From: Akkermansiaceae bacterium
GTDB lineage: Bacteria; Verrucomicrobiota; Verrucomicrobiia; Verrucomicrobiales; Akkermansiaceae
DNA length: 64,000 bases
Direction: 5' to 3'
Assembly (NCBI GenBank): GCA_031412525.1
Contig: JANODE010000171.1
Location: 15,499-79,498 of the forward strand
Positions 1-64,000 of the stretch are shown piece by piece. Position 1 is the stretch's first letter; the number at the start of each line of letters is the position of its first letter. Both the position numbers and the translations under genes were made by a program. The notes beneath the pieces are model-generated. The model ran no database searches. It had not been told where the DNA came from and was given only the letters and a program-made list of their open reading frames with translations.

Positions 1-1
1 T

Positions 2-391
2 GATACCGGTGTCTGGTTCCGCCGTTACCATCGGCTTCCGCTGAGGCCATCCTTGGTCAAATTCCTCGAAACGGAAGTGACCGAGTTCCATTTGTGTCCC
101 TTGAGCGTGGCGGAGATCGCATTCAAGTGGCAACGCGGACGCTTGCCGGGAATTCCCGATCCTGCGGCGTGGATCGATCACTCGTTGGAGAATTTCATTG
201 TGGAACATCCATCGCCGACGGCTGCCCTACAGGCCGGGCTTTGGGACTGGAACCACGGTGATCTTGTGGATCGGCTGCTGGCTGCGGTTGCTGCGGAATC
301 AGGGTTGGTCCTCATCCACACCGACCGGGTTCTTAAGGGACTCGGGGATTTTCCCCAGCGCTATTTTCCTAATACAGCGGCGGAAGCATAG
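2..391 (+). CDS. vapC: PIN-domain (VapC-family) toxin, 5'-truncated by the window edge
   Basis: The frame is open from base 2 (DTGVWFRRY...). It has the PIN acidic motifs DT.., SVAEI and HGDLVDRLL, and resembles the PIN gene at 54902-55303. Confidence 0.8.
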   Translation, partial: DTGVWFRRYHRLPLRPSLVKFLETEVTEFHLCPLSVAEIAFKWQRGRLPGIPDPAAWIDHSLENFIVEHPSPTAALQAGLWDWNHGDLVDRLLAAVAAESGLVLIHTDRVLKGLGDFPQRYFPNTAAEA

Positions 392-426
392 CCGAAAAGA
401 ATTTTCATTGAACTGGATCAACAGTC

Positions 427-2271
427 TCACTTCGGAAACAGCTCGTGCTGAAGTCCGATCCGGTCCGCTGCGGCCGCGATCTGCTTGAGGCGGTATTGGA
501 AAACGGCATCTGTCGGTTTCGCACCTGCGGGTAAGGTCACTTTCAGCCAGCGTGGCACGGGTTTCTCGAGGGAATCATTGTCGGGCGGTGTGGCGAAGGC
601 TTTGAGCAGCGTGCGGAACGGGATCAGTTTTCCGTCGAGGTAAAACTGGCCTCGTTCGTTCGCTGTCAGGGCGGTGATGCTGTTCTCAAAGAGCCCGGCG
701 CGCACCAATTCGACGGCTGCATCGGTGTCCTTGGACTCTATCACCAACTTCTCCAGTTCTGCATTCGCCTGCCGCAGCCTCTCGATTTCCTCCGCATAGC
801 GTTCCTGATTCACCACCTCGTTCTTCACCTTGTCTAGCAGAGTTTGGTTTTCCTGACGGAGTGCTTCGAACTCAGTGGGAAGTCCCGCTTCGCTCGTGTT
901 CCTCTTGCTGATCTCGCCGAGCATTTTTTGGTTCGATTCAAGAAGTCCGGCGAGACGTTGTTTGGTATCGACGAGCTCCAGTTTCTGCTGATCCAACTCA
1001 GCGTTTTTATGCTCTAACTCCGCTTTGGCATCGAGCGCCCGCTTCATGCCGACTGAAGTTCCCGCCGCACCCAGGATCAGTATCAAGAGTAGCGCTGATC
1101 CTGCGAATACCGGACCACGATGGCGTCGCGTGAAGCGCAACATGACATAGGCCATGCTCGGTGAACGGGCTTCGACCGGCTTGTGCTGGAGAAAGCGTTG
1201 CAGATCTTCCGCCATCGCGCCTGCGGATTCGTAGCGACGGGCCGGATCTTTTTCGAGGGCCTTGAGCACGATCCAATCGAGATCACCGCGCAGGGATCGC
1301 GGCGAGACTGCGGACGCCTCCGCGAGCTTGGTGCTCGGCTTCGGCGGGATGACTTCGCGGATCAGGCGCTGCATCTCGGCATAAGTCGCATTGCGGAGTT
1401 GATGGCCGTCCACTGGGGTCGCGCCCGTGAGGAGTTCGAACAAGATCACGCCCAGCGAATAGATATCGCTGCGGGTATCCACCGCCAGCGGATGGAGCTC
1501 CGCCTGCTCCGGACTCATGTATTGCGGCGTGCCGAGCATGCGGTCGTGTTGGGTGAAGAACGTTTTCTCCGTCAGTTCCATCCCGATCGCCTTCGCGATG
1601 CCGAAGTCGATCACCTTGACCATCGGTTTGCCATCGTGCAAGGAGACAAGGATGTTAGACGGTTTCACGTCGCGGTGGATGATGCCTTTCTGATGGGCGT
1701 GCTGGATGGCTGCGCAAACATCGGTGAAAAGCTCCAGGCGCTCGCGGGTATCGAGATGATTTTCCAAACAGTAATTCGTGATCGGCATGCCCTTGACCAG
1801 TTCCATCACGAAGTAAGGTCGGCAGCCTTCCGTCGTACCCGCATCATGCACCTTCGCGATGTGCGGATGGTCCATCAGAGCGAGCGCCTGGCGCTCCGCC
1901 TCGAAGCGAGCGATCACTTCCTTCGAGTCCATGCCCGGCTTGATCACCTTGAGCGCGACCTGGCGTTTCACCGGTTGGCTTTGCTCCGCGAGAAACACAG
2001 TGCCGAATCCGCCCTCGCCGATTTGTTGGAGCAATTTGTAACGACCTATCATGTCACCTTCTCCTTCCCTGCGTGTTTCGCGCCAGAGCGGATCGGCGAA
2101 GGGTTCCAAGAAAGTCTCATCCGCGAAGTGAGCGGCGATCAGCGACTCGACCTCTTCGCGTAATGCCTGATCACCCGTGCATGACTCGTCGAGATAGGCG
2201 GCGCGTTCCCGCGGGCCTGGGATTTCCAAGGCCGCATGCAGGATGATTTCCGGAGTGGGTTGATTCTGCAC
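427..2271 (-). CDS. Membrane-anchored Hanks-type Ser/Thr protein kinase (ECF-associated type)
   Basis: Kinase motifs GEGGFGTV, VALKVIK, HRDVKPSN, DFG, GTPQYMSPE and DIYSLG. The N-terminal 'ERAAYLDESC.GD..LREEVESL' segment is typical of ECF-linked kinases. A TM segment, coiled coil and small C-terminal domain follow. Confidence 0.95.
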   Translation of the reverse strand: MQNQPTPEIILHAALEIPGPRERAAYLDESCTGDQALREEVESLIAAHFADETFLEPFADPLWRETRREGEGDMIGRYKLLQQIGEGGFGTVFLAEQSQPVKRQVALKVIKPGMDSKEVIARFEAERQALALMDHPHIAKVHDAGTTEGCRPYFVMELVKGMPITNYCLENHLDTRERLELFTDVCAAIQHAHQKGIIHRDVKPSNILVSLHDGKPMVKVIDFGIAKAIGMELTEKTFFTQHDRMLGTPQYMSPEQAELHPLAVDTRSDIYSLGVILFELLTGATPVDGHQLRNATYAEMQRLIREVIPPKPSTKLAEASAVSPRSLRGDLDWIVLKALEKDPARRYESAGAMAEDLQRFLQHKPVEARSPSMAYVMLRFTRRHRGPVFAGSALLLILILGAAGTSVGMKRALDAKAELEHKNAELDQQKLELVDTKQRLAGLLESNQKMLGEISKRNTSEAGLPTEFEALRQENQTLLDKVKNEVVNQERYAEEIERLRQANAELEKLVIESKDTDAAVELVRAGLFENSITALTANERGQFYLDGKLIPFRTLLKAFATPPDNDSLEKPVPRWLKVTLPAGAKPTDAVFQYRLKQIAAAADRIGLQHELFPK

Positions 2272-2382
2272 GGCGGGTGGTTTTTGGTAAGAGTTTGAGA
2301 CTACCTGACTATGCGAAAAACCCCCGGCGATGGGATCAAATTATTCAGGTCTCCCCGATGGATGCAAAAATGCCGGCTGCCC

Positions 2383-2952
2383 TCAAACGTCCCGTTTCAG
2401 TTCCCGGAACAACCAGGCTCGCGCATAAATCCAATCCCGCTTCGCCGTGGGCGTCGAGATGCCGAGGGCCTCGGCGGTTTCCTCGATCGTCATTCCTACG
2501 AAATAGCGCAACTTGACCACCTCGGCCTTGCGCGGCTCGATTTGGGCGAAGCGATCAAGGACATCGTTAATGGCGAGAATTTCGTCATCTTTTACGGAAG
2601 GAACGGCGATGATGTCTTCTACGAAAACGGTCCGCTGCATTGCGCCGCCGTGACGTACGGCTTTTCGATGCCGCGCGCGGTCGATCAGGATGCGGCGCAT
2701 GGCTTCGGCGGCCGCGCAGAAAAAGTGCTTCCGCCCTTCCCACTGTTGTTCTCCGGGCGAGAGCTTCAGATAGGTTTCGTGCACCAAGGCGGTCGCCTGC
2801 AGGGTATGTGCCTCTGCTTCCTGCCCCAAGCGCCAGGCCGCCAGCTTGCGCAACTCCCCATAGACGAGCGGAATCAGATCTTCCGCCGCTTGCCGGTCTC
2901 CCTCGCTTGCAGCGTTGAGGATGCAAGTCACGTTGTCGCTGCCGCGTTCCAT
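2383..2952 (-). CDS. ECF RNA polymerase sigma factor, TIGR02999 (planctomycete/verrucomicrobial) type
   Basis: Motifs LIPLVYGELRKLAA, HTLQATALVHETYLKL, RHFF.AAAEAMRRILIDRAR and VKLRYFVG.T.EE.A..LGIS..T..RDW..ARAWL. Start moved to the ATG at 2952; it lies directly upstream of the kinase. Confidence 0.93.
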   Translation of the reverse strand: MERGSDNVTCILNAASEGDRQAAEDLIPLVYGELRKLAAWRLGQEAEAHTLQATALVHETYLKLSPGEQQWEGRKHFFCAAAEAMRRILIDRARHRKAVRHGGAMQRTVFVEDIIAVPSVKDDEILAINDVLDRFAQIEPRKAEVVKLRYFVGMTIEETAEALGISTPTAKRDWIYARAWLFRELKRDV

Positions 2953-3133: not shown

Positions 3134-4813
3134 ATGAAGCCTCCATTCTACGTCATCGGTCACAAAAACCCTGATACCGACGCGATTTGCTCCGCCATTG
3201 GCTATGCCGCCCTGCTCCGTGCGGTGGGCGAGGAACCGAATGCGATCGCCGCGCGTTGTGGTGAAATTTCCCAACGCACGAAATGGGTGCTTGAGCGGGC
3301 TGGCTTGGAAGCCCCCTTGCTGATCACCGATGTCCGCACGAACGCGGCGATGATCTGCCATCGCAAGGTGATCAAGGTGGATTGGTCGGACACGTTCCTC
3401 ACCGCCTACCGCCGCATGCTCACGGCGCAGATCCGCTGCGTGCCGGTGGAGGACGAGGATGGAAACCTGCGCGGCATTCTGCGTTATTTCGATTTGCTCA
3501 AACTCCTGCTGCCCGCCGATACCGAAGGCCTCAGCGTGCGGACGATCCATGTCTCGCTGGCGAAACTGGCCGACACTCTGCAGGCACAGTCACTCGGTGC
3601 GATGTTGCCATCTCCGGAGTTCGAAGAGGATCTCATCTTGTTAGTAGGCGCGTCATCGCAGTCGACCGTGGACAAGCGTCTGCGGCAGGCGATCCAGGAT
3701 GGAAATGTCGGCCGGTTTCTCGTCATCTGTGGCGACCGTCCGATCGTGCAGCGCTACGCCATCGATCACGGTGCGCGTGCTCTGTTAGTCACAGGAGACA
3801 ATCCTATTTCCGGTGAAATCCTCGCCTACGCCGCACGCAGCGGAGTGGTGGTGCTGCGTTGCCATCAGGACACGGCCAGCGCTTCCACACTCATCCGCTG
3901 CTCGCGTACGGTGCGGCACGTGATGGAGGAAAATTTCCTAACGGTCACTGCCTCCGAGTCGGTCTCACGACTGCGGAAACGGCTCGGCACGATTGACCAG
4001 GATCTGTTTCCCGTCATCGAACACGCGGGGGGCAAAATGGTCGGCGTGATTGCAAAATCCGATCTCGTCGATCCGTCGCGCATCCGCCTCGCACTCGTCG
4101 ATCACAACGAATACGCACAGGCCGTCAATGGCGTCGAGGAAGCAGAGATTACGGAAGTCATCGATCACCACCGCCTCGCCGGCGACCTGGTTTCGCGTGA
4201 GCCGATCCGCTATCTGAACGAGCCCGTGGGGTCGACGTGCACGCTTGTCGGCCGGAAATTTTTCCACCGCGGCCTCATGCCGCAGCCGAGTGTGGCGATG
4301 TGTCTCTGCGCGGGAATCGTTTCCGATACGCTTTGCCTGACCTCACCGACGACGACATTGTTAGATCGCGAGATGCTCAATTGGCTCAGCGGCGTGGCCG
4401 GTGTGGATCCGAAAAAATTCACGGACGAGTTCTTCGCCGTGGGTTCGCTGATCGCTAACGGAACTCCGGAGGAGATCCTGAATGCGGACCGCAAGGAGTT
4501 CACCGAGCAGGGTTTGTCTGTCAGCATTTCACAAGTTGAGGAGCGCGACCTGCATGGTTTTGCCGCTCGGCGTGAGGAACTGGAAGCCGCCTTGAAGGAG
4601 CTCCACGTGGCGAGGAGTTATGATCTGGCGGTGCTCGCGGTGACGGATGTGGCGCTGCATCACAGCATGATCCTGGCGGTGGGCCAGGATGCCGCGCTGG
4701 CGAAGCTGCCCTTCGAGCGCATGGACGGAAGCCTCTTTCACGCCCCCGGCGTGGTCAGCCGCAAGCGCCAGATTTTCCCCGCTGTCTGTGAGGCGATCCA
4801 GCACTCGCGGTGA
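3134..4813 (+). CDS. ppaC: Mn-dependent inorganic pyrophosphatase with CBS-DRTGG-CBS insert (family II, DHH/DHHA2)
   Basis: GHKNPDTDAICSAI, LVDHN, IDHH, EPVGSTCT, SDTL and SRKRQ motifs, with a ~240-aa regulatory insert. Confidence 0.92.
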   Translation: MKPPFYVIGHKNPDTDAICSAIGYAALLRAVGEEPNAIAARCGEISQRTKWVLERAGLEAPLLITDVRTNAAMICHRKVIKVDWSDTFLTAYRRMLTAQIRCVPVEDEDGNLRGILRYFDLLKLLLPADTEGLSVRTIHVSLAKLADTLQAQSLGAMLPSPEFEEDLILLVGASSQSTVDKRLRQAIQDGNVGRFLVICGDRPIVQRYAIDHGARALLVTGDNPISGEILAYAARSGVVVLRCHQDTASASTLIRCSRTVRHVMEENFLTVTASESVSRLRKRLGTIDQDLFPVIEHAGGKMVGVIAKSDLVDPSRIRLALVDHNEYAQAVNGVEEAEITEVIDHHRLAGDLVSREPIRYLNEPVGSTCTLVGRKFFHRGLMPQPSVAMCLCAGIVSDTLCLTSPTTTLLDREMLNWLSGVAGVDPKKFTDEFFAVGSLIANGTPEEILNADRKEFTEQGLSVSISQVEERDLHGFAARREELEAALKELHVARSYDLAVLAVTDVALHHSMILAVGQDAALAKLPFERMDGSLFHAPGVVSRKRQIFPAVCEAIQHSR

Positions 4814-6172
4814 TCATTTACCGATACAAAAGCTGCTGAAAATCACTCCCAGCAGATCCTCGGTATCGACGCGTCCTGGAATTTCCCCCAATGCGTCGAG
4901 CGCCTCGCGAAGATCGATGGCGGCGAGTTCGGCATCGGAATTTTCATCATCCAACAGCTCCAGTGCCGCGAGCAAGCCGGTCCGCGCCTGGGCAAGGCTG
5001 GCCTGGTGGCGGGCGTTGATGGCCACCGCGTGCTCGCCCCAGTCCGCCTCGCTGAAATGAAGGGAATCCCGGATCGCGTCGGAAAGTGCTTCGAAGCCCT
5101 CGCCGTTGGTGCAGGATAGCCGGATCGCTTCCACGTCCGACCACGATGCGTGTTCGCCAAGGTCGGTCTTGTTCAGGACTAACAAATGTTTCGCCGCGGT
5201 CGCTGGAAGCACGCCATCCGTTGGACGGGGTAGGTTCGCATCGGCGATTTCCAACAGAAGATCCGCCGCTTCGATTTGTCGGACGGTGCGCTGGATGCCC
5301 TCCGCCTCGATGCGGTCAGATGCCTCGCGCACGCCTGCGGTGTCGACGAGACGCAGTGGAATGCCGTTCAAATTGATTGTTTCCTCGATCGTGTCGCGAG
5401 TGGTGCCGGCGATGTCGCTGACGATGGCGCGCTCGAATCCTAACAATCGGTTGAGCAGACTGGATTTCCCCACATTCGGCTCGCCGAAGATGACAGTCCT
5501 AACACCCTCGCGGAGGATGCGTCCCTGGTCGGCCGTGGCCAGCAGGGAGTCTACGACCGCGAGCACGGCGTGGATGCGTCCGCGCAGCAGCACGCCGGTT
5601 TGCGGATCGATGCCTTCTTCGGGAAAATCGATCCAGGCTTCGAGGTGCGCGAGTGTTTCGAGCAATTGATCGCGCGCTTCGGTCGTCCGGCGGCCGAGTG
5701 TTCCCTCGAGCTGGCTGCGCGCGGCACGAAGGGAAAGCCGGGTCTGCGCGGAGATCAGGTCCATCACGCCTTCGGCCTGTGTCAGGTCGAGCTTGCCATT
5801 GAGAAAGGCGCGCTGGGTAAATTCGCCCGGTCCGGCGGCGGCGGCCCCACAGGCGAGAAATCGTCCTAACACCTCGCGGGTGACCAGAATGCCGCCGTGA
5901 CCGGTGAATTCCACGCTGTCTTCGCCGGTGTAGCTGTTAGGAGAGCGGAAGACAGTCAGCAGGCCATCGTCGATCACTTCACCCCTGGCATCTATCAGCT
6001 CGCAATAGCGCGTGGTCCGCGGCATGACTGAGGATGCTTTCCCGGACGTCGCCCGGTCCGCGATGGCGATGGCATCAGGCCCGGAGATCCTCACCATCGA
6101 GATCGCGCCGACGCCGGGTGCCGTGGCGATTGCCGCAATCGTCGTGCGCTCGGGTGCGTGGATCGCTTCCAT
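4814..6172 (-). CDS. mnmE: tRNA modification GTPase MnmE/TrmE
   Basis: TIAAIATAPG, SYTGED, GEFTQRAFLNGKLDL, GEPNVGKSSL, GTTRD, DTAG and terminal FCIGK. Start trimmed to the ATG at 6172. Confidence 0.97.
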   Translation of the reverse strand: MEAIHAPERTTIAAIATAPGVGAISMVRISGPDAIAIADRATSGKASSVMPRTTRYCELIDARGEVIDDGLLTVFRSPNSYTGEDSVEFTGHGGILVTREVLGRFLACGAAAAGPGEFTQRAFLNGKLDLTQAEGVMDLISAQTRLSLRAARSQLEGTLGRRTTEARDQLLETLAHLEAWIDFPEEGIDPQTGVLLRGRIHAVLAVVDSLLATADQGRILREGVRTVIFGEPNVGKSSLLNRLLGFERAIVSDIAGTTRDTIEETINLNGIPLRLVDTAGVREASDRIEAEGIQRTVRQIEAADLLLEIADANLPRPTDGVLPATAAKHLLVLNKTDLGEHASWSDVEAIRLSCTNGEGFEALSDAIRDSLHFSEADWGEHAVAINARHQASLAQARTGLLAALELLDDENSDAELAAIDLREALDALGEIPGRVDTEDLLGVIFSSFCIGK

Positions 6173-8808: not shown

Positions 8809-8856
8809 TTCGTGGGAAATCTAGGTTCGCGGCGGGTGCTGGTCAAAATTTTTGTC

Positions 8857-13716: not shown

Positions 13717-13719
13717 CTC

Positions 13720-53587: not shown

Positions 53588-53591
53588 TAGG

Positions 53592-54720: not shown

Positions 54721-54732
54721 ATCGATAAAGGT

Positions 54733-54901: not shown

Positions 54902-55303
54902 TCACCAGATTGCCTTCACCGGTGAGTCGGCATCGTGGAAGCGCCGGTCTTTGGTTAGAACCGGCACTCCGTGATTCAGGCCGGTGGCCGCGATGATGCG
55001 GTCTGCTGGATCGCGGTGTTGCCAGTTCAGTCCGGCGGCCTCCAGCCAGATGTCGGGTGTGGTATCAAGCAGCCGCATCCACGGAATCTGGGCGATCTCG
55101 GGCAGCCAGCTCCGCACGGGGACCTGCAATGCCAGTTTTCCACGCAATCTCTTGTCCTCCAGTTCCCACAAACTGACGCCGCAGACCAATGCCTCACCCG
55201 TGCCGCTTTCCCAATCCTCGAAGCATCGGACGATCCTGGACGATAGAGAAGCGGGTGAGTTCAACCACCAGACGAGCACATGGGTATCGATGACAGCGAT
55301 CAC
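54902..55303 (-). CDS. vapC: VapC PIN toxin
   Basis: VIDTHVLVWW, SLWEL and HRDPADRIIAAT....LTKDRRF. Confidence 0.92.
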   Translation of the reverse strand: MIAVIDTHVLVWWLNSPASLSSRIVRCFEDWESGTGEALVCGVSLWELEDKRLRGKLALQVPVRSWLPEIAQIPWMRLLDTTPDIWLEAAGLNWQHRDPADRIIAATGLNHGVPVLTKDRRFHDADSPVKAIW

Positions 55304-55569
55304 TTCCCATCCTCCAGCCAGATTTCCTCTTGGTCCGTGCTCCAGTCCTCGATCGGAGCCATGAGCTCCTGTTCATCTGGCAACACGGACAATCGGGCCT
55401 TTTCCCGGAGGCGTGAAATCACTTCGCGAACATCGGTCTTTGGTTTCAATGCTTTGATTTCCAATACTTCTCGGCCGCGATCCGTGACGATCAACGTTTC
55501 TCCCGTTTCTTCCACTTTACGGAAATACTCGAGCATCTGGCCCTTCAATTTTCCCTTGGAAACGATCAT
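55300..55569 (-). CDS. Phd/YefM-family antitoxin
   Basis: MIVSKGKLKGQMLEYFRKVEETGETLIVTDRGREV; overlaps the PIN start. Confidence 0.88.
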   Translation of the reverse strand: MIVSKGKLKGQMLEYFRKVEETGETLIVTDRGREVLEIKALKPKTDVREVISRLREKARLSVLPDEQELMAPIEDWSTDQEEIWLEDGK

Positions 55570-55583
55570 TGGTTGATTCAATA

Positions 55584-55605
55584 ACTATGGTCACGACTGT
55601 GGTCA
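55584..55605 (-). promoter_or_regulatory. Direct-repeat operator/promoter of the phd-vapC pair
   Basis: Minus strand reads TGACCACAGT-CG-TGACCATAGT. The first repeat contains the dnaE2 stop codon and lies within a TTGACC -35-like hexamer. Confidence 0.55.
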
Positions 55606-58600
55606 ATGGAAATCATGGGAAGCCACGGCGTGCTGCGCTTCGGCTCCGCCCAGCGGCGAGATGGTGGTGACAAAAACCGTCGGCTTGTCGCCCTGTGAGC
55701 GCTGCAGGCGTCCGCTGGCTAACAGGAATGCCTCGGTCACGATCACCTGCCGGAAGTGGTGGAACGTCTTTTCCGGAATGAACAGGTTCGCGATGCCCGT
55801 TTCGTCTTCGAGTGAGATGAAACAATGCCCGTTCGCGGTGCCGGGGCGCTGACGGCAGATCGCCATGCCGCCGACCGTTACTGGAATGCCACCTGGCAGA
55901 TTCTCCAGATCCACCGCACGCTGGATTTTTCTGTTAGTCGCGGCCATCCGCCAGAGCTTCATCGGGTGTGGGCCGGAGCTGGCGTCCTGCACGGCAAAAT
56001 CCGACGACAAGCGCTCGGCCAGGGTCATCGGCGGCAATAGATCGGGACTAACCGCTTTCTCCATCGGAAACAGATCGTCATACAGCGGCAGCTCCGCCTG
56101 CCACATCGCCTGGCGGCGGTGAACGACTTGCGGCAATTCATTGAGCGCCCCGCTGCGGGCAAGGCTGCGGCGTTCCTTTTCACTGGGTTTCACACGACGC
56201 AGGAAATCATCAAGCGACTCAAAATCCTTCCGCCCGCGTTCGCTGACGATGCGGCGGATCGTTTCCTTCCCGAGATTTTTCAAACGGCCCATGCCTAACC
56301 GGATCGTCCGTTCATCGGTCACTTCGGTTAGCGCACCGCTCCTGAGGCAGCAGACCGGCAGGATTTTCATGCCGTGATGTTTCGCATCCTGGATCAGCGT
56401 GTTCACCGAGTAGAATCCCATCGGCTGGTTGTTGATGAGGCCAGTGTAGAACGCCGCAGGGTGGTGCGCCTTCAGCCAGCACGATGCGTAGGCGATCAGC
56501 GCGAAGGAAATCGCATGGCTCTCGGGAAATCCATACAGCGCGAAGGTCCCGGTGGCGTGGAGGATTTTTTCCTGCACTTCTTTTGTCAGTCCCTTCGCCG
56601 TCATGCGCGCGAGAAGTTTCGCGGTGACGCGTTTCATCTTCTCGTCGGAGCGCTTGAAGGAAATCGCCCGTCGCAGGTCGTCGGTCTCGCCGCCGGTGAA
56701 GTCCGCCATTTTCATCGCCATGGCCAGCATCTGCTCCTGAAACAAGGGCACGCCCAGAGTGCGTTCCAGGATTTCCTCACAATCCTTGTGGATGTAGTCG
56801 ATGCTTTCTTTTCCCCTGCGCCGGTTCAGATAGGGATGCAACAGATCGCCGACGATGGGCCCCGGGCGGATGATGGCGACCTCGATGACGATATCGTAAA
56901 ATTTCTGCGGCCGGAGGATGGGCAGCGTCGCCATTTGCGCGCGCGACTCGACCTGGAACGTACCAATGGTGTCGGCGCGGCAAAGCATATCGTAAACGGC
57001 GGGATCATCTTTCGGAATCTTCGCGAGATCGACCTCGATGCCGCGGCTCCGGCAGATCTCGATGGAGTCCTGCATGGCGGCGAGGATGCCGAGACCTAGC
57101 AGATCGATCTTGACGATGCCGAGATCCTCGCAGTCGTCCTTGTTCCATTGGAGGATGGTTCGGTTAGGCATCGTCGCGGGCTGGATCGGCACGACGGCGT
57201 CCAGCCGGTTGTCACAAATGACGATGCCGCCCGAGTGCTGGCCCAGATGGCGCGGCATGCCGAGGATTGACTGATAGAGCTTCGCCAGCGCCGGCAGTCT
57301 CGGATGCGAAGGCGGCAACAGGGTGGCCATGCGGTCCTCGAAATCCGTTTCCCGCGCCACCTGTTTTTCCTCGTCTGAGCCGAAGAACCGGAATCCCGAA
57401 CTCTCTTTGGAAAACCGGTCCGCGAGCGAGAGCGGGAAACCGAGCACCTTCGAGACCTCGCGAAACGCCGAGCGCGGCCGATAGGTGATCACGTTCGCCG
57501 TCATCGCCGCACCCCGTGTGCCGTACTTCTGGAACACATACTGGATGACTTTTTCGCGCAGCTCGCCGGAGGGGAAGTCCACGTCGATGTCCGGCCATGA
57601 CGCGCATTTTTCATTGAGGAACCGCTCGAAAAGCAGGCCGCTGCCGATCGGATCGACCTTGGTGATGCCGAGCACATAACAGACCACGGAGTTCGCCGCC
57701 GAGCCGCGGCCCTGGCAGAGCATTCCTTCCCGCTTCGCGAAATCGACGAGATCCTGGACGATGAGGAAATAGCCGGGAAACCCGAAATGCTCGATCAGGG
57801 AGAGTTCCTTGTCGAGCTGCCTGCGGATTTTTTCATCGACCCTGCCATACATCCTAACAGCTCCCTGATAGGAATTCCGCCGCAGCAGTTCCGCCTGTTC
57901 CGGCAGGGAAAGCGGCTGGCCGCGCTCGTCGGGAAAATCCGGGAAACGATAGCCGAGGTTCTCCAGCGTGAAATCGATGCGATCGGACAAGCGGTGCGTG
58001 TTTTCGACCGCCTGCGGCAGATCGGAGAACATTTCCAACAGCTTCGTGGGGGACCGCAGATGGCGTTCGCTGTTTTTCTCCAACAGATTCCCGGCCTCGT
58101 CGAGTGTCACGTGATGCCGCAGGCACGTGAAGGCGTCGGCTAACAGACGACCGGGGCGCGTGGCATACAGCGGCGCGTTGCTGGCGAGCAGGGGCAGCCG
58201 CAGATGGGTGGCCAGATCGATGAGATAGCGGTTGAGCTTCCCGTCATCGCGCAGGCGGTGGCGGTTGAGCTCCACATAGACGTTGTTCCGGCCGAAGGTG
58301 GCGATCAGGCCTTCCGCGGCGGCGAGGGCGCCGGTCCTGTCGTTGCGGAGCAGATGGCGGACGAGCGGCCCGTCGCGGTCGCCGGTTAGAGCGATGAGGC
58401 CGGAGTTCGTCAGTTCGCGGGCTTTTCCCGCGCCGTCCAGATGCAGGTCCGTCAGGTGGCGGCTGAGTGTCTGATAGGAAGCCTGGGTTGTGCAGAGCAC
58501 TGGCAGGTGCGAGCCGTTAGGCAGATCCAGGGTCGCGCCAACGAGGGCGCGGATGCCGCAATTCCTGGCTGCTTCGTGCGCGCGGGCGGAGCCGTAGAAT

Positions 58601-58725
58601 CCGCCGTGATCGGTGATGGCGATGGCGCTGTAACCCAGCGCTGCGGCGCGGTGGACAAGCTCCTCCGGCTGGCTCGATCCACGGAGGAACGAGAAGGCGG
58701 AGCGGGCATGGAATTCGGAAAACAT
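55603..58725 (-). CDS. dnaE2: Error-prone DNA polymerase III alpha homologue DnaE2 (ImuC)
   Basis: PHP start HARSAFSFLRGSS, AITDH..FYG.AR, QGRGSAANS.VCY.LGIT, PDIDVDF, PRHLGQHSGG, KIDLLGLG, FQVESRAQM, YGFPESHA and QRPGTA...FISLEDETG. Confidence 0.97.
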   Translation of the reverse strand: MFSEFHARSAFSFLRGSSQPEELVHRAAALGYSAIAITDHGGFYGSARAHEAARNCGIRALVGATLDLPNGSHLPVLCTTQASYQTLSRHLTDLHLDGAGKARELTNSGLIALTGDRDGPLVRHLLRNDRTGALAAAEGLIATFGRNNVYVELNRHRLRDDGKLNRYLIDLATHLRLPLLASNAPLYATRPGRLLADAFTCLRHHVTLDEAGNLLEKNSERHLRSPTKLLEMFSDLPQAVENTHRLSDRIDFTLENLGYRFPDFPDERGQPLSLPEQAELLRRNSYQGAVRMYGRVDEKIRRQLDKELSLIEHFGFPGYFLIVQDLVDFAKREGMLCQGRGSAANSVVCYVLGITKVDPIGSGLLFERFLNEKCASWPDIDVDFPSGELREKVIQYVFQKYGTRGAAMTANVITYRPRSAFREVSKVLGFPLSLADRFSKESSGFRFFGSDEEKQVARETDFEDRMATLLPPSHPRLPALAKLYQSILGMPRHLGQHSGGIVICDNRLDAVVPIQPATMPNRTILQWNKDDCEDLGIVKIDLLGLGILAAMQDSIEICRSRGIEVDLAKIPKDDPAVYDMLCRADTIGTFQVESRAQMATLPILRPQKFYDIVIEVAIIRPGPIVGDLLHPYLNRRRGKESIDYIHKDCEEILERTLGVPLFQEQMLAMAMKMADFTGGETDDLRRAISFKRSDEKMKRVTAKLLARMTAKGLTKEVQEKILHATGTFALYGFPESHAISFALIAYASCWLKAHHPAAFYTGLINNQPMGFYSVNTLIQDAKHHGMKILPVCCLRSGALTEVTDERTIRLGMGRLKNLGKETIRRIVSERGRKDFESLDDFLRRVKPSEKERRSLARSGALNELPQVVHRRQAMWQAELPLYDDLFPMEKAVSPDLLPPMTLAERLSSDFAVQDASSGPHPMKLWRMAATNRKIQRAVDLENLPGGIPVTVGGMAICRQRPGTANGHCFISLEDETGIANLFIPEKTFHHFRQVIVTEAFLLASGRLQRSQGDKPTVFVTTISPLGGAEAQHAVASHDFH

Positions 58726-58739
58726 GATGATCGACGATT

Positions 58740-60949
58740 CTAACTATCCCGGTGTGGACTCCGGGTTCTTACTTCCTCAATCACATCTTGCAACGAGCGA
58801 GGGAAGCGGTTCGTGCCGACGTATGAATGATCCTCAGGGTCGCAGGATTTGAAAACGGCCTTTAGAATGAGATCCTTCTTGTTGAGTTCACGATTTAGGG
58901 GAAAGTGAATTTTCTCATAGCTGGTTGTGCTGCCCTTGACCATCAGGGCGACGGCATCGATCACCGGAGGGTCGAGGGAATCAAGATATTCGGCAACCAG
59001 GGAGGCTTCCTCACTTTCGGAGATGTAACCTCCATGATAGGCGGTGATCGCAAGGACGTTGATCTCGTTCTCCTTGCTGGGCCTGAACGGCTTCTCGGGA
59101 TTGTTGGCGAACAGATATGCCTTTTTGGAAAAGGGTTCGCTTCCCTTGGTTCCGCGCCGGTTCTTCACCTCCAGATTGATCCTCACCTGGCCTCCGAGGA
59201 TGGTGAAACTCCAGTCCACGGACGGCGCTTGTTGCCGCTTGCTTGAGCGGGTTTCTTCCAAGATGACCTTTTCGTGTTCCACCGTTCCATCGTCGATTCC
59301 CTGCCAGCGTGAAAGCCACCAGACCTCGTTCAGGGTGTCGAGGTGTTGGGAGCCGAGTTTCAGATGGCTGCACAGTTCCGCTTCCACCGGCCAGAGCGAG
59401 GGGATGATCCTGTGTCCCGTCTCGGATACTTTGCTGAGATAAAGCAGGCTCTCCCGATCCAATCCGGTCCCATCCATCATGCTGACTTCATTTTTGGCAA
59501 CGAAAGGGTCATCCGCGTTGTCGATATCGTGGCCGGATTGATCGAACGCATATTCGACGAGAGCGAAGTTGATTTCACTCTCGGGTGGTAGGAGCCATCT
59601 GGGAGGAAGAAGCCGGAACCCGGCGGGCGCCATTACCTTCAAGTCCTGTGCCAGCAGCGAGGCCCTTTGCATGAGTTCCTTTTCACCGAGCACGCCCTCC
59701 CGAACCAGCCCCCCGGCTTCGATCCGGAGCAGGGAGAACAGTTCGGATTGGGTTGGCAGCCTGCCTTTCCCCACGGGCATGTCGCTTGCCGGCCTCCCGG
59801 TGAATTGTGATAGATAGGTTTGAAGATTCACCGAGGATCGATCACCCGCAACCACGGAGGAATCGTCGGGGATGCGGCTGATGACCACCTGCTTGCACGC
59901 TCCCACCAGCTTTGCGATTTTGGACAGTTTCGAAAACGTCTGGATCGATGGGTTTGCGGAGAGCTTGATCTCGATGACCTCGCGGCCCTGATCGGTTTCG
60001 AGCAGCAGGTCACACTCAAGGCCGTCGCTTGTCCGGAAATAGTAGGCGGCGAATGACTCGCCGGTCGCCTTGCGGGTTGTGATGATCTGATCGATGACCC
60101 AGCCTTCCCAGCTTTCTCCCACCCACGGTTGGTCGATCAGGCCGGATGTAGAGGTCAACCCGAGAAGCGAGTGAAGAAGGCCGCTGTCCCTCCAATAGAT
60201 TTTCGGGGTCTTGATCAGACGTTTGGGAAAGTTTCCGGCAAAAAAAGGTGGGAGGCGGCGGATCAGAAACGCGCCTTCCAAAAAATCAAGATACGAACCA
60301 ACCGTATGATAAGTGATGCCGAGACCTTGACCGAGTTGCGAGGCATTGAGCTGTGACCCGTGGATGGCGGCGACCATGCGCATGAGCCGGTCCGTTTGTT
60401 GGGGTTTCGATGGCAGGCCCCATGCGGGCAGATCCTGATGGGACATCTGCCTGAGGTAGGATTCCTGCCACACGGGGAATGCCGCGGCTTCAGGGTGCAG
60501 GCAGCCGCCGTCCGGGAAGCCGCCATTTCTCCACAGTGAATCCGCATACTCCGGCGGCAGTTCCATCGCTGAGAGGGGTGGTAGATCCACCAGTGCCATC
60601 CGGCCGGCGAGGGATTCGCTGACCTGTTTCATCAGGGAGGGAGAGACGGAACCCAGAAGAAGAAAGCGGCCGTTTGATTTCCTCCGCGCATCAATGGCTC
60701 CTCGCAAACGGGGGAAAATCTCAGGCCAGCTTTGGGCTTCGTCGAGAATTGCCAACTGGTCTCCCGCGATGAGCTCGTTCCAGAGGAGATCAAGTTTCAC
60801 TCGATCCGCTTCTTGCTCGAGATCGAAATAGGCAGAGGAAAATGTCTTTGCCAAGGTGGTCTTTCCTGCCTGACGAGGACCGACGATGCAAACTGCGGGA
60901 AACTGCTCGAGGCGTTTCCTGACAAGGGCTTCTTGAATGCGTTGGATCA
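58740..60949 (-). CDS. AAA_14 ATPase-DUF4143 protein fused to an additional C-terminal PD-(D/E)xK-like domain
   Basis: GPRQAGKTT, ILDEAQ, FLLLGS, ESLAGR, GGFP, KTPKIYWRDSGL, WEGWV and ECDLL..VIEIK. Then ~350 extra aa with TLNE...SVDW...LEVKNR. Confidence 0.85.
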
Positions 60950-60967
60950 TTTCTTGTAAAATAGAAA

Positions 60968-61100
60968 TCAATTTCTAATTTGCAATAGAATTGATTTGGG
61001 TTGATCGCGATGCCGCTCAATACGTGCGACGATTTGCTTGGGTAGGCTCGATTCCGCGGAGGAACGAGAAGGCGGAGCGGGCATGGAATTCACAGAACAT
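60968..61100 (-). pseudogene. Frameshifted duplicate of the dnaE2 5' end
   Basis: 61045-61100 is nearly identical to 58671-58725 and encodes MFCEFHARSAFSFLRG. After a 1-nt insertion the shifted frame continues SSLPKQIVAR, versus SSQPEELVHR in dnaE2. Confidence 0.85.
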
Positions 61101-61121
61101 GTTGAAAAGTTAGAAATCATG

Positions 61122-61265
61122 AACCGCAGATGAACGCGGATGGACGGTAAGAAGAAAATCCAATGAAAAGAGGGCTTCATCCGATCTTTTCAACCCTCTG
61201 TATTCATCTGCGTTCATCTGCGTTCATCTGCGTTCATCTGCGTTCATCTGCGTTCATCTGCGGTT
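61122..61265. repeat. Inverted-repeat element with six tandem TTCATCTGCG decamers
   Basis: AACCGCAGATGAACG (61122-61136) is the exact reverse complement of CGTTCATCTGCGGTT (61251-61265); (TTCATCTGCG)x6 spans 61203-61262. Confidence 0.92.
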
Positions 61266-61284
61266 GGAAATTTCTTGGTGTTTG

Positions 61285-62754
61285 TTAGAGATAAATGCCG
61301 TCGAGCCGCCATTGGTCGTGGGGCTTTTCGAAAACGAGGCGCAGCAGTGGTGCGTGACCGACGCGTACGTCCCACTCCAGCCGCTGCCAGGCGCTGCCCG
61401 GTTCCCAGCCATCGCCGGACATCAGGAAGGGCCCGCGGTGCTCCAGCACCTCGCCGGGATGCGGGCCGGTGAGGAGTGCGAGCGGTCGGGGATGATCGTT
61501 GGAAGGGGATTCGAACGCGACGGCGATTTTCACCGGCGGCCGGAACCGGCGCAGCGGGATCGAACAATCCGGCAGATCCGTGGCAGGAGAAACCCCACCC
61601 GCGGCCTGCATTTCAAACGCGTCCGGCCGATGGCTGGGCAACGGCGCGGGAACACCGACACGGCCGCTGCCTAACAGCGCCTCCAGCCGCGCCAGCGTGT
61701 CCGCCCAGCGCTCCGGTCGCGGCAGCCGGCGGCCGGTCCAGTCGCGCTGGCAGGAGAGGGGAAATGCCGCGGTTGCATCCAACCCGATGCCAATGACCGG
61801 CGAAGGCAAAACCAGCGATTCCGCCAGCGTTTGGATCGGCTTGAGGAGTGCCGTCGGATCGGATAACGGCTCGGACAAACGGATTTCCCGCCGCAGGCCG
61901 CCCTGTTCGAGCCGCAGGTGGATTTCCAGAACGGAGGCTGCCAGATGGCGGGCTGCCAGACGTCCCGCGAGCACGTGCAGGAGGCGGTTGAAAACAAAAA
62001 CCAGCGCCTCGCTCGAATCGATCGCATCATCGAAATCGATCGTCTGCGCGAGCGATTCCGGCGGACGGTGCAGTTTCAGCAAACGGCAGGTTTTTCCCGA
62101 AACCACATCGTGCCAGTGCCCCGCGCGCGGCCCGAAGCGTCCCACCAGATCCTGCCGCGGCAGGCGGCGGAAATCGCCGAGCGTGCGGATCCCTAACAAA
62201 TCCAGCAGCGGCAGAAAGCGGTCGCCACCATCCAGATTGGCTAACAGCGACAGCGGCAGCAGGCCGATCTCCTCCACGGAAATCCAGCGTGCCCGCGTCC
62301 GCGCTTCCAGTACGGCGAAGTGGGCGAGGTCCGGCGTGGCTGCCAGTGAATGGCAGACTTCCTCGCCGGATTCCGGCAGCGATTCCAGGGCCTCCAGCCG
62401 AACCGTCTTTTTTCTGCCTGATAGATCGAGCAGCACGATGTCCGGCGCGGTGATTTCCACATCGGGCGTCAGGCTGTCCGCCAGGGAGACGAGTTCAGCG
62501 AGCAAAGCGGCTTCGTTTTCCGGGTGGCGTGAAATCAGCTTCAAATCCGGACACCGCACCAGCGCCCGCCCTAACGGCCAGCCCGCGGTAATTCCCGTCT
62601 GCCGCGCGGCGGGATTGATCGCCATCAGCGGGATTTTCCCATCATCGCGATGGGTCGATTCCCGCAGGATGGCACAGGGCCGCCCGCGCCATTCCGGCTG
62701 GGCGCGAAGCGCGGCGGTGACCGGGAGATCCGGCAGATGGAAGGCGGCGAACAT
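61285..62754 (-). CDS. imuB: ImuB, Y-family polymerase-like mutasome protein
   Basis: GITAGWPLGRALVRCPDL, LTPDVE...D..LLDLSG, LPL..L, LGIRTLGDF..LPR..L..RFG. Located between imuA and dnaE2; start at the ATG at 62754. Confidence 0.9.
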   Translation of the reverse strand: MFAAFHLPDLPVTAALRAQPEWRGRPCAILRESTHRDDGKIPLMAINPAARQTGITAGWPLGRALVRCPDLKLISRHPENEAALLAELVSLADSLTPDVEITAPDIVLLDLSGRKKTVRLEALESLPESGEEVCHSLAATPDLAHFAVLEARTRARWISVEEIGLLPLSLLANLDGGDRFLPLLDLLGIRTLGDFRRLPRQDLVGRFGPRAGHWHDVVSGKTCRLLKLHRPPESLAQTIDFDDAIDSSEALVFVFNRLLHVLAGRLAARHLAASVLEIHLRLEQGGLRREIRLSEPLSDPTALLKPIQTLAESLVLPSPVIGIGLDATAAFPLSCQRDWTGRRLPRPERWADTLARLEALLGSGRVGVPAPLPSHRPDAFEMQAAGGVSPATDLPDCSIPLRRFRPPVKIAVAFESPSNDHPRPLALLTGPHPGEVLEHRGPFLMSGDGWEPGSAWQRLEWDVRVGHAPLLRLVFEKPHDQWRLDGIYL

Positions 62755-62759
62755 GGCGA

Positions 62760-63407
62760 TCAGGTGGCGCGGCGGAGTTGGTTGGGGCGGGCGGTCATCC
62801 GCTGCAGGATCTCGTTTCTCGGCAGATCGAAATCCGTTAGCTCGAGCCGTGCGGAGAGTTCGAGCCGCAGGCTGGCGCAGGGGACGAGCGGGGCGGGGGC
62901 CAGCACGATCAGGCGGCAGGCGCCGGTTTCGCAAAGCTGTTTGAGCCGCCACCATGCCGAGGCGGGAATGGAGCGCAGCGAGGCGGGCGGCAGGCCGCAG
63001 AGATCGAGCATGACGAAGGGGACGTTGGCATCGCGCACCAGCAGGTCGGCGGCCTTGAGCGCTTCCTGGATTTTCGCGCAGCGCACCCACAGCAGTTGTG
63101 AGCAGGCGGCGGCCGTGTGGGAAACCGGATCGAACCCATCGCCACCGTCCACCAGCACGAATTTCGGAAACTCCGCGGCTTCCTCCGGCTCCGCCAGCAG
63201 CCCGGCGATCCACAGGGAAAGCCCGCCGCCCTCCGCTGCGGGAATGATCTCGGAAATGGCACCCGCCGGGAAAGTCGCCGTTTCGAAAAGCGACTTCGGT
63301 GCCTCGGCCGGGGCTTCGGAAACCGGCGTGGCTCCATGCGCCGCGGGGAATTTTTCCCGGAGCTGCCGTCGAAGGTCATGGAGCGTGGTCGCCGTCACGG
63401 GCGGCAT
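62760..63407 (-). CDS. imuA: ImuA / RecA-like inactive ATPase
   Basis: FPAGAISEI, VLVDG.DGFDP, LLWVRC...EALKAADLLVRD....VMLDL; first gene of the cassette, with a LexA box upstream. Confidence 0.85.
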   Translation of the reverse strand: MPPVTATTLHDLRRQLREKFPAAHGATPVSEAPAEAPKSLFETATFPAGAISEIIPAAEGGGLSLWIAGLLAEPEEAAEFPKFVLVDGGDGFDPVSHTAAACSQLLWVRCAKIQEALKAADLLVRDANVPFVMLDLCGLPPASLRSIPASAWWRLKQLCETGACRLIVLAPAPLVPCASLRLELSARLELTDFDLPRNEILQRMTARPNQLRRAT

Positions 63408-63426
63408 TTTACCGCTTCGCGGAGAC

Positions 63427-63440
63427 TGTTCAAGAGAACA
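63427..63440. promoter_or_regulatory. LexA (SOS) box, Verrucomicrobia-type
   Basis: TGTTC-AAGA-GAACA, a perfect TGTTC-N4-GAACA palindrome 19 nt upstream of the imuA ATG. Confidence 0.92.
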
Positions 63441-63441
63441 A

Positions 63442-63999
63442 TTATTCCGGCTTCAGAAGCTCTGTTCGGAATAAGACCGCCAGTCGTTGGCAGAGAATGT
63501 CATGCACTTCCTGCGCGGGCCTTGTTCCCACACGAGCGAGGCGGGGGAGGGGGCTGGCGAAGATGCGGTCGGAGAACGAAAGGTGGCGGGTGCCGGAGAG
63601 GATCAGGCGGTCGCGGTAAGGTTGCTTCAGCGCGTCCTGGATGCGGGCTTCGGCCTCGCGGGTGAGGATCTGGCCGGCGTTTTCATCGGGCTTGCGCGCG
63701 GATTCGAGCCAGGCCGGGGTTTCCTGGTCGAAGAAGAGGAACGGCCCGCGCGGGAAATCGTTTTCCAGAAACAGCCCGTCCTCGTTCGCTCCGGCCACGA
63801 ACGCGGGGTTTTTCGCGCAGAGCTGGATCGCTGTGGAGCCGCCGAACGAAAAGCCGAACACACCCGCGCGGTCGAGCCGGAGTCTGCCTGATAGAATCCC
63901 CGCGGCCTCCCCTGCCAATGCCAGCCGGACGCGCTCGACCTGCTCCAGCCGTTCGGCGAAGCAGTGTCTGGCGTTCGCCACGAAATCGGCAGTGCTTTT
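63442..63999 (-). CDS. Alpha/beta hydrolase (PAF-acetylhydrolase-like), 5'-truncated by the window edge
   Basis: GVFGFSFGGSTA nucleophile elbow, NEDG and GTRHLSFSD; the frame is open to the window end. Confidence 0.8.
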   Translation of the reverse strand, partial: KSTADFVANARHCFAERLEQVERVRLALAGEAAGILSGRLRLDRAGVFGFSFGGSTAIQLCAKNPAFVAGANEDGLFLENDFPRGPFLFFDQETPAWLESARKPDENAGQILTREAEARIQDALKQPYRDRLILSGTRHLSFSDRIFASPLPRLARVGTRPAQEVHDILCQRLAVLFRTELLKPE

Positions 64000-64000
64000 G

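Follow-up and report, generated by a model that had tools for sequence, protein, structure and literature searches.

In the 64,000-nucleotide stretch of Akkermansiaceae bacterium DNA analyzed here (assembly GCA_031412525.1, contig JANODE010000171.1; hereafter the window), the short word CTAAC/GTTAG, and in particular its extended, non-palindromic form YCTAACR (reverse complement YGTTAGR), is over-represented against the codon bias of the genes that carry it. This is very probably a word maintained at the level of the DNA, arising by a process directed at its product and read by a putative sequence-specific factor. An earlier note, made from the letters of the window, had proposed a genome-wide self-mark or repair-driven signature, often built through rare codons; that reading is supported in part by the results below, which show a lineage-wide, DNA-level word that uses rare codons, behaves like a mark of resident ("self") DNA, and is scarce in imported DNA. 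The material consists of this single 64-kb window (GC 58.4%, about 50 genes, 90% coding density) and 13 loci (4.6–23 kb) of close relatives from two genomic neighborhoods, and each comparison between them involves small numbers of sites.

The window contains 49 CTAAC and 43 GTTAG, or 92 sites (1.44/kb), close to the 85–90 sites with near-equal strands previously counted by hand. Dinucleotide shuffles yielded 32.0 ± 5.7 (maximum 46), and a maximal-order Markov model predicted 46.8, making CTAAC the top 5-mer of the window (z = 6.6). For the 84 coding sites, shuffling of synonymous codons within genes gave 29.4 ± 4.5 (maximum 41, n = 300)—that is, a 2.9-fold excess—and permutation of whole codons gave 29.3 ± 5.5; codon-shuffled controls, the check suggested in the earlier note, hence fall far short of the observed count. 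The sibling words CTAAG/CTTAG, CTAAT/ATTAG, and CTAAA/TTTAG occur 10, 15, and 14 times in the whole window, and 3, 9, and 8 times outside an islet at 32.4–41.3 kb, where CTAAC occurs 88 times; the earlier estimate of fewer than about ten each is thus correct. All other NTAAN words occur 10–41 times each. CTAAC fills 84 of 1050 silent opportunities (8%), and about 16% of the heptamer-compatible ones. An apparent depletion of AT-rich one-off neighbors under codon shuffles was not used, being partly an artefact of a codon pool inflated by the motif. The four rare-codon examples cited previously (sucA 50111, mnmE 5440, the ppaC-like gene 3640, and sucB 52973) were all verified. The word goes counter to codon usage and is therefore not accounted for by the needs of coding.

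Comparison of the bases around CTAAC with those around CTAAC in codon-shuffled versions of the genes showed preferences for C or T at −1 (P = 7 × 10⁻⁵), for A at +1 (41 of 83; P = 5 × 10⁻¹⁰), for G or A at +2 (P = 2 × 10⁻⁷), and weakly for A at +3, with no significant information outside −1 to +3. The word accordingly has a 5-bp core and about 7–8 informative positions in all, with A preferred over G at the +1 position of YCTAACR. This heptamer was observed 44 times in the window (26 on the plus strand, 18 on the minus strand), against 9.1 ± 3.0 expected, and 41 times in coding sequence, against 7.1 under codon shuffles (5.8-fold; z = 13); CTAACA is the most deviant 6-mer of the window (41 vs. 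5.8). CTAAC without the preferred flanks is still enriched about two-fold (43 vs. 21.7), suggesting that recognition is graded. The pentamer originally named as the unit is therefore sound as a core, but not as the full unit, since the flanks matter.

CTAAC/YCTAACR acts as a word of duplex DNA, independently of DNA strand and of the direction of transcription. There is no strand skew (49:43 for CTAAC and 26:18 for YCTAACR), either overall or in any quarter of the window, and no flip along it, and a polar motif of the KOPS (FtsK-orienting polar sequence) or SRS (SpoIIIE recognition sequence) type was rejected on this ground. With respect to transcription, 40 sites read CTAAC and 44 read GTTAG in the sense strand. 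The coding frames used in the window are CTA-ACN (23), xCT-AAC (17), G-TTA-G (33), and GTT-AGN (10), and the two frames that would make in-frame stops are empty, save for one stop codon: TCTAACA at 61283–61289 on the minus strand, the TAA of which terminates imuB. Of the window's TTA codons (61 in all), 33 fall within G-TTA-G, TTA being used in 12% of G-Leu-G contexts compared with 1.5% elsewhere, and 23 of the 91 CTA codons precede AC (22% vs. 3.4%). In the window, the frames xCT-AAC and GTT-AGN look flat unless flanks are considered; Y-CT-AAC-R was found in 11 of 30 cases against a background of 11.5% (P = 3 × 10⁻⁴), and GTT-AGN with fitting flanks in 6 of 10 against 17% (P = 3 × 10⁻³). In two relatives, L082 and L088, all four stop-free frames are enriched (50–57% vs. 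17%, 14–15% vs. 4–5%, 32–33% vs. 5–6%, and 47–50% vs. 19–20%), and three of the five TAA stop codons of L088 stand in C-TAA-C. Furthermore, spacers in motif-rich lineages hold 13 sites in 8.6 kb (1.5/kb), compared with 16 in 24.5 kb (0.65/kb) in weak or outgroup lineages (P = 0.005); seven sites of the window are strictly intergenic.

The word is lineage-specific, being found in one Luteolibacter subclade, in independent assemblies. Close relatives were gathered by a protein search followed by exact-protein look-ups, and include the motif-bearing L172 (GCA_038237425.1), L082, and L088 (the latter two from ENA bins) and the decaying or motif-free sisters L081 (GCA_039915545.1), L085 (GCA_039925065.1), L087 (GCA_041753275.1), and Luteolibacter yonseiensis (GCA_016595465.1). 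By SucA, the nearest named relatives of the window are metagenome-assembled genomes of Luteolibacter sp. (95 and 90%) and L. yonseiensis (85%). Observed and expected numbers of YCTAACR in coding sequence are 41 and 7.1 in the window (5.8-fold), 3 and 0.1 in L169 (SucA 96%), 5 and 0.9 in L081 (SucA 95%; 5.6-fold), 25 and 4.0 in L082 and 27 and 4.3 in L088 (SucA 91–92%; 6.3-fold), and 11 and 3.0 in L086 (SucA 90%; 3.7-fold). They fall to 4 and 1.4 in each of L171 and L087, to 2 and about 1.1 in each of L170 and L085, and to 0–1 against 1–2.4 in L. yonseiensis, Roseibacillus, and two other Verrucomicrobiota. L172 has 14 CTAAC in 16 kb, eight of them in YCTAACR. The pooled verrucomicrobial outgroups (L083, L001, L003, and L009) avoid CTAAC/GTTAG (9 vs. 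37 by codon shuffles; 0.25-fold), a ratio that, tied with that of TTAAG, is the lowest of all 16 NTAAN words; for the remaining 15, the ratios are alike in the outgroups, the window, and L088. Relative to this outgroup baseline, the enrichment of CTAAC is about 12-fold. GC content does not explain the pattern, since L086, L087, and L171 match L082 and L088 in GC, yet contain 3–7 times fewer sites. Nothing comparable was found at similar GC in 80 SucA loci from other phyla, among the matches listed; in the SucA scans of genome and metagenome contigs, the listed matches were mostly distant (≤67% identity) and served as negative controls only. The flanks differ by lineage, with the window favoring C/T...A and L088 favoring T...G/A. 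From the window and two other neighborhoods in relatives, we infer that the word extends genome-wide.

The word is maintained by a selection-like force, its loss being several-fold slower than that of comparable words. Between the window and either L088 or L172, about 42–44% of third codon positions differ, yet 13 of 20 window sites (65%) in 13 aligned genes are intact in these relatives, compared with 29% for composition-matched 5-mers with A or T at the third position (P = 1 × 10⁻³), 5 of 56 (9%) for sibling NTAAN/NTTAN words (P = 2 × 10⁻⁶), and 1 of 11 (9%) for other TTA or CTA codons. Where both proteins permit the word silently, 13 shared 5-mer sites were found against 2.0 expected (224 opportunities), and 13 shared heptamer sites against 3.1 expected (93 opportunities; P = 1 × 10⁻⁹). 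All 13 shared sites are YCTAACR, and 13 of 15 window heptamers (87%) are retained. The same conservation test has been applied to HIP1 (PMC5861425). If a few positions had gained the word strongly in parallel, the outcome would look like such conservation; the force is directional either way. As a rough estimate, the lower loss, together with the occupancy of about 16% against a baseline well below 1%, would fit a scaled advantage or conversion bias of about 3–4.

At the orthologous positions, word-less relatives have TCC-AAC, CCC-AAC, or ACC-AAC; G-TTG-G or G-CTG-G; CTG-AC or CTC-AC; and GTC-AG. The alternative words (CCAAC, CTGAC, and CTCAC) thus become CTAAC by C>T, G>A, and C>A, respectively. 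Some gains need two steps (CTG>TTA), and some change amino acids (AGC>AAC in sucB of L082 and L088, and several in dnaE2). The direction of these changes contradicts a repair signature of the Vsr/Dcm type, which would consist of the opposite change, T>C. None of the precursor words shows depletion (CCAAC 0.97, CTGAC 0.91, and CCGAC 0.93); taken with the varied routes of gain, this indicates a process set by its product and not by a hypermutable substrate. A degenerate C-Y-R-A-C sink for cytosine methylation and deamination was rejected because of these undepleted precursors.

Gain and loss differ among lineages. L081 and L169 are the two nearest relatives of the window in this set. L081, with about 90% nucleotide identity in sucA, keeps 4 of 11 window sites in three genes, and its own five sites are all common to L088, none being private; L085 keeps none of 11 window sites and none of 17 L088 sites, in agreement with the sibling words, which lack protection and are kept at 9%. 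Some sites are private to the window (e.g., CTG>CTA in sucA; GTC>GTT and CTC>CTA in sucB), and thus gain continues in its lineage. L082 and L088 are 99.3% identical, and their 113 mismatches include no site gained or lost, an uninformative comparison. No recombination tracts were detected by sliding-window identity around the sites that are common to the window and L088 and missing in L081 and L169.

Three explanations would dispense with a reader of the word altogether. A translation-level codon-pair preference for the rare leucine codons TTA and CTA is in keeping with the excess in the window falling mostly in G-TTA-G and CTA-ACN. These two contexts are, however, exact reverse complements of each other, and the non-leucine frames, stop codons, and spacers are enriched as well, making such a preference highly improbable. 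A true codon-pair effect, C-TAT-CAG, is available for comparison in the window itself and is sense-biased by 21:3, unlike CTAAC at 40:44. Coding sequence contains 24 copies of CTATCAG where 5.5 were expected, mostly as C-TAT-CAG (Tyr-Gln) and CTA-TCA-G (e.g., at 6961, 8902, 20088, 23085, 31504, and 50866), and is possibly linked to avoidance of CCAG(G); being a sense-strand codon pair, it was excluded from the word. CTAGCAG, which would belong with it to a possible wider CTA-D-CAG family, occurs 9 times against 2.2, on both strands. Neutral, context-dependent mutation is also very unlikely. It would have a hypermutable precursor (C-Y-R-A-C methylation and deamination) funnel CCGAC, CCAAC, and CTGAC into a functionless CTAAC, and it can draw on the many gains that are C:G>T:A transitions from CCAAC or CTGAC and on the lower GC of the motif-richest relatives. 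However, apart from the undepleted precursors, gains also come through CTC transversion, two-step changes, and amino-acid replacements, the product is conserved 2–7 times better than control words, and the lineages with GC equal to that of L082 and L088 have far fewer sites. Finally, an artefact of assembly or base calling, such as systematic errors at a modified motif, has nothing specific in its favor beyond the window coming from a metagenome assembly, and its probability is negligible. An independent assembly of the public source run showed 0 differences to the window over kilobases, and identical orthologous sites recur in NCBI, ENA, and JGI assemblies; contig names of the MEGAHIT/SPAdes type suggest short reads. 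Restriction of the excess to the window or an assembly artefact, either of which the earlier note regarded as fatal to its reading, is thus contradicted by the excess in independent assemblies of other relatives.

What reads the word is a separate matter, and we would rank the putative readers as Chi-like, then methyltransferase-linked, then uptake signal. It is possible, though doubtful, that YCTAACR is by analogy a Chi-like control word for a putative helicase-nuclease of the RecBCD/AddAB type. In such a scheme, a DNA-processing enzyme would read the word as a sign of its own chromosome. A helicase-nuclease with a pre-set specificity would have entered the ancestor of the subclade; at a break, the enzyme would digest DNA as far as the word, where its action would change over to recombinational repair. 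Every added copy would give a slight advantage, and copy-less DNA, such as phages and new islands, would be destroyed. This would explain a selected word that is foreign to codon usage, the fuzzy flanks, and the modest fold-enrichment, as well as site decay in those sister lineages whose reader was lost or replaced. Chi words are 5–8 nt long, asymmetric, 2.3- to 8-fold over-represented, and slightly more frequent on the core genome, and they serve in discrimination between self and non-self (PMC3784561; PMC5959072). Their skew is reported to be insignificant in Bacillus subtilis, Staphylococcus aureus, Haemophilus influenzae, and Pseudomonas (PMC5959072). The previous argument from the lack of strand bias consequently holds against KOPS-type polar motifs but not against Chi. 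A restriction target was rejected because the word is enriched and not avoided; recognition sites of restriction-modification systems are normally avoided in their hosts (PMC4687349).

Several points weigh against a Chi-like word. Neither recBCD/addAB nor another candidate reader gene was found in the window or the fetched loci. The word is AT-rich in a genome of 58% GC, whereas the Chi words known so far are rich in G and fit common codons. It switches on and off between lineages whose SucA proteins are about 90% identical, whereas Chi specificity is usually stable at the family level, and such a patchy distribution is more typical of mobile methyltransferase or defense genes. The absence of skew, scored by contig strand and not by replication direction, is at best neutral, and selection and a conversion-type drive would look alike in both conservation and occupancy. 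Further weaknesses are the gene models, which come from a simple home-made ORF and codon-model caller; the restriction of the relatives' loci to two genomic neighborhoods; and the uncertain branching order of L085, L170, and L088 with respect to the window, for which reason events were not counted.

Three other kinds of reader have to be weighed with it. An asymmetric or solitary methyltransferase could methylate (Y)CTAAC(R), with the marks being useful and selected to about 1/kb, or with a ratchet (Elhai) in which new sites, once methylated on the nascent strand, misdirect mismatch repair and so become fixed; we consider this rather doubtful, though the nearest competitor. The marks could serve in strand discrimination or in self-marking for a defense system. 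A word of 5–7 bp, asymmetric and with R/Y flanks, would suit such an enzyme, and the ending ...AAC resembles many Type III/IIL N6-methyladenine targets. Its patchy distribution among near relatives is typical of mobile methyltransferase genes, and gain is product-directed through any type of substitution. Precedent comes only from cyanobacterial HIP words, where every alternate word is accompanied by its cognate methyltransferase and a repair-ratchet model has been put forward (PMC4390886). However, no methyltransferase is encoded in the window, where searches with PADLOC, NCBIfam, and Pfam gave no methyltransferase, nuclease, or competence gene over the 64 kb. The avoidance of restriction-modification sites cited above also speaks against it, and the graded flanks with a two-fold excess of flankless CTAAC suit fuzzy recognition better than a crisp specificity. 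A general repair ratchet, moreover, would not predict word-specific conservation, a point also made for HIP1 (PMC5861425).

That competence machinery prefers YCTAACR, with uptake bias and recombination spreading it as in known uptake signals, appears unlikely. The density of about 1–2.7/kb in either orientation at silent positions in genes, the scarcity in imported islands, the flank dialects of the lineages, and the selection-like retention would all agree with it. Known uptake signals, though, have cores of 9–12 bp and are over-represented by orders of magnitude, compared with merely 5–7 informative positions and a 3- to 6-fold excess here; a 5-mer would discriminate poorly against AT-rich DNA, in which it occurs about once per kilobase by chance, and there are neither recombination tracts around the sites shared with L088 nor paired sites in spacers. 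Equally unlikely, in our estimate, is a binding word of another abundant DNA-binding protein, retained by selection because of a chromosome-scale role (nucleoid organization, segregation, or exemption from silencing), as has been proposed for HIP1. Site conservation, orientation independence, and fuzzy flanks are consistent with such a protein. The clustering of sites by gene, an 11-kb native stretch without any heptamer, and the dispensability of the trait in sister lineages argue against it.

Whichever reader applies, iterated genome words—Chi, HIP1, and uptake sequences—are few, and the part played by selection on the word, as opposed to codon usage, is mostly disputed. It is quite possible, though we hold it with some reserve, that YCTAACR is a previously undescribed verrucomicrobial "self word": a non-palindromic heptamer set against codon bias and read by a putative acquired machine for genome maintenance or defense, whether Chi-like, methyl-directed, or of the uptake type. 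As part of the same reading of a horizontally acquired reader, and with the same reserve, the constraint on the heptamer may be of about the same order as that on amino-acid-changing positions. If so, a word composed of disfavored codons would offer an exceptionally clear natural example of selection on the DNA word as such, with sister lineages that lost the reader displaying decay. The motif-rich, decaying, and motif-free sister genomes, close relatives sampled in public metagenomes, form a natural comparative design that could reveal the reader through gene presence or absence and could give the strength of selection. In practical terms, the word marks resident versus recently imported DNA in these genomes and could matter for genetic tools in Verrucomicrobiota, that is, for the survival or uptake of DNA after transformation. 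A full-text literature search gave no earlier description of the CTAAC/GTTAG word, although its coverage was incomplete and novelty is not thereby proven; a similar search on Luteolibacter methylomes and on uptake sequences in Verrucomicrobia returned nothing relevant.

Along the window (1–64000; 49 sites on the plus and 43 on the minus strand, 44 of them in YCTAACR, 26 plus and 18 minus), sites are clustered by gene and unevenly spaced (coefficient of variation of the gaps 1.4; variance/mean 1.7). In the DHH/CBS/DHHA2 (ppaC-like) gene, a site at 3640–3644 (minus strand; sense TTG-TTA-GTA) lacks the Y flank. In mnmE, CCTAACA lies at 5439–5445 (plus; sense TTG-TTA-GGA), 5498–5504 (plus; sense GTT-AGG), 5865–5871 (plus; sense GTG-TTA-GGA), and 5935–5941 (minus; sense CCT-AAC-A); the first, third, and fourth are kept in L172, the first at the orthologous codon, and the second is kept there in its CTAAC core, as TCTAACG, with a different −1 flank. 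The neighboring aminotransferase gene has CCTAACA at 8307–8313 (minus; CCT-AAC-A) and TCTAACG at 8517–8523 (minus; TCT-AAC-G), both kept in L172, which in these two genes shares 6 of 8 sites with the window.

In sucA, two sites are also found in L169, L081, L082, and L088: TCTAACG at 49982–49988 (plus; TCT-AAC-G), for which word-less relatives have TCC-AAC-G, and CCTAACA at 50110–50116 (minus; sense GTT-AGG), for which others have GTC-AGG. CCTAACA at 51321–51327 (minus; sense GTG-TTA-GGG) has the same distribution, with TTG or CTG in other relatives. CCTAACG at 51007–51013 (plus; CTA-ACG) is present in L082 and L088, with CTC-ACG in L169 and L081, and TCTAACG at 51398–51404 (plus; TCT-AAC-G) is likewise present in L082 and L088. 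One of the seven strictly intergenic sites, TCTAACA at 52135–52141 (plus), is in the sucA–sucB spacer. In sucB, CCTAACG at 52972–52978 (plus; CTA-ACG) recurs in L169, L081, L170, L082, and L088, and TCTAACG at 53339–53345 (plus; TCT-AAC-G) in L082, L088, and L086. The richest long gene is dnaE2 (55603–58725, minus), with 10 of 49 synonymous opportunities filled (P = 0.005 for excess).

Recently arrived DNA has not gained the word. An islet of five same-strand genes (32582–41326, plus) has 4 CTAAC, no YCTAACR, and 19 of the 39 sibling words, and over 31300–41326 only 4 of 173 opportunities are filled (P = 3 × 10⁻⁴). In the AAA_14/DUF4143 ATPase gene (58740–60971, minus; PADLOC PDC-S01), which stands between dnaE2 and imuB, the only site overlaps the gene's own stop codon. 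Both the islet and the ATPase gene have the appearance of mobile or defense DNA. The scarcity noted earlier in both, and the gap in CTAAC, here located at 11354–15896, are confirmed; YCTAACR is absent from 8673–19790 and from 30860–42278. A native block at 8857–15455, with genes for an FGGY kinase, a hypothetical protein, Amt, a second hypothetical protein, CoaX, and a ROK protein, is also motif-free (0 of 116 opportunities; P = 2 × 10⁻⁵). A protein search with Amt gave no hint that this block is foreign to the clade, the relatives of Amt being Luteolibacter-like, and the block is syntenic in L172, where it has just three sites, in two of six genes. The simplest reading is that most sites are old and that the last ancestor shared by the window and L172 already lacked the motif in the 8.9–15.5 kb block.

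The islet genes, which have a lower GC content at third codon positions, encode a 261-aa hypothetical protein, a 1026-aa protein with an N-terminal Tubulin_2 domain (PF13809), a 664-aa OmpA/MotB-like protein, a 621-aa protein with weak ZorA-like matches, and a 355-aa coiled-coil protein; they may form a Zorya-like or other membrane-anchored defense island. The ATPase gene, a match to a candidate defense family (PDC-S01, E = 1 × 10⁻⁷⁸), splits an imuA-imuB-dnaE2-like mutagenesis cassette (55603–63999) that is also the motif-richest long stretch, with dnaE2 at 55603–58725, imuB at 61285–63213, and a putative imuA, named from its position alone, at 63442–63999. The three cassette genes are contiguous in L081 and L170. 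Since dnaE2 and imuB (55603–63213) have 76–77% DNA identity to L081 (15497–20091), compared with 90% for sucA, the cassette evolves much faster or has a separate history.

Other products recognized by Pfam in the window are a Ser/Thr kinase, an ECF (extracytoplasmic function) sigma factor, superoxide dismutase, phosphoenolpyruvate carboxylase, a nucleoside symporter, a polyprenyl synthase, Asd, a peptidyl-prolyl isomerase, a YkuD transpeptidase, HflX, a class II aminoacyl-tRNA synthetase, an ABC ATPase, and several PIN/MazE pairs, in addition to the pyrophosphatase-like DHH/CBS/DHHA2 protein, MnmE, the aminotransferase, the FGGY kinase, Amt, CoaX, ROK, SucA, SucB, DnaE2, and ImuB named above; the one tRNA gene is tRNA-Arg(CCG). 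Four genes encode PIN-domain (VapC-like) toxins (2–391, 16442–17079, 54128–54744, and 54902–55581), three of them with a small antitoxin-like gene upstream, of the MazE/AbrB type in two; next to sucB, relatives bear different PIN pairs. Upstream of sucA in L086 (4671–5538), two short ORFs with EcoEI_R_C and ResIII/SWI2_SNF2 matches are apparent fragments of a gene for a Type I restriction subunit. Among other words, GTAC (24 vs. 96), GGCGCC (12 vs. 40), and CCAGG/CCTGG (118 vs. 211) are strongly depleted under codon shuffles, and CTCGAG, CAGCTG, AGATCT, and CGATCG are also low; restriction systems, whether past or present, usually leave depletion of this kind. GGAAA/TTTCC is over-represented 1.9-fold. 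A freshwater-sediment metagenome run contains 97% of the words sampled from the window. In the source metagenome (run X1, window positions 42001–62000), a second, closely related strain is present at a similar depth (about 50×), differing by substitutions and short indels at scattered places, such as the sucA–sucB spacer at 52132–52162. Four metagenome runs aligned to 20 kb proved to be a mix of many relatives, which confirmed the sequence and were of no use for the polarity of sites.

Among known systems, Dcm/Vsr in E. coli (CCWGG up, CTAG down) is likewise a word bias set by something other than coding needs, namely sequence-specific repair; it differs in that Vsr turns T:G into C:G, whereas CTAAC is gained by C>T, G>A, and C>A at inner positions and its product is conserved. 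The DNA uptake sequences (DUS) of Neisseriaceae and the uptake signal sequences (USS) of Pasteurellaceae occur at about 1/kb in both orientations within genes, are scarce in islands, have dialects, and can spread by drive. However, they have 9–12 bp cores with far higher enrichment, DUS often form inverted pairs at terminators, and their competence machinery is known; no core of at least 9 bp with very high enrichment was found here. The earlier analogy to HIP1 (GCGATCGC), a highly iterated palindrome of cyanobacteria, holds in part: HIP1 and the alternate HIP words are hyper-abundant, occupy silent coding positions, are lineage-specific, and are lost or replaced in some lineages, and their sites are conserved beyond control words, as was found on repeating the test of Xu, Lawrence and Durand here (13 of 20 vs. 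29 and 9%; 13 vs. 3.1). HIP words differ in being GC-rich palindromes of 6–8 bp that are enriched 15- to 300-fold and tied to orphan methyltransferases, whereas CTAAC is non-palindromic, 5–7 bp long, and enriched 3- to 6-fold, in another phylum and with no methyltransferase in the window. Chi differs in being G-rich and made of common codons, where CTAAC is AT-rich and uses rare codons; in its density, at 0.2–0.3/kb for 8-mer Chi against 0.7–1.4/kb; and in that CTAAC switches on and off among very close relatives. Chi is co-oriented with replication in about 75% of cases in E. coli, though not universally, and the values here, counted by contig strand, are 49:43 and 26:18. The likeness to Chi lies in a short, asymmetric, group-specific word that is spread across native genes, slightly richer in the core, and used as a self mark against an exonuclease, with skew absent in several species; correspondingly, YCTAACR falls within the 5–8 nt range, is non-palindromic, and has a few-fold excess in native DNA (2.9-fold for the 5-mer and 5.8-fold for the 7-mer, with blocks at 0 of 116 and 4 of 173).

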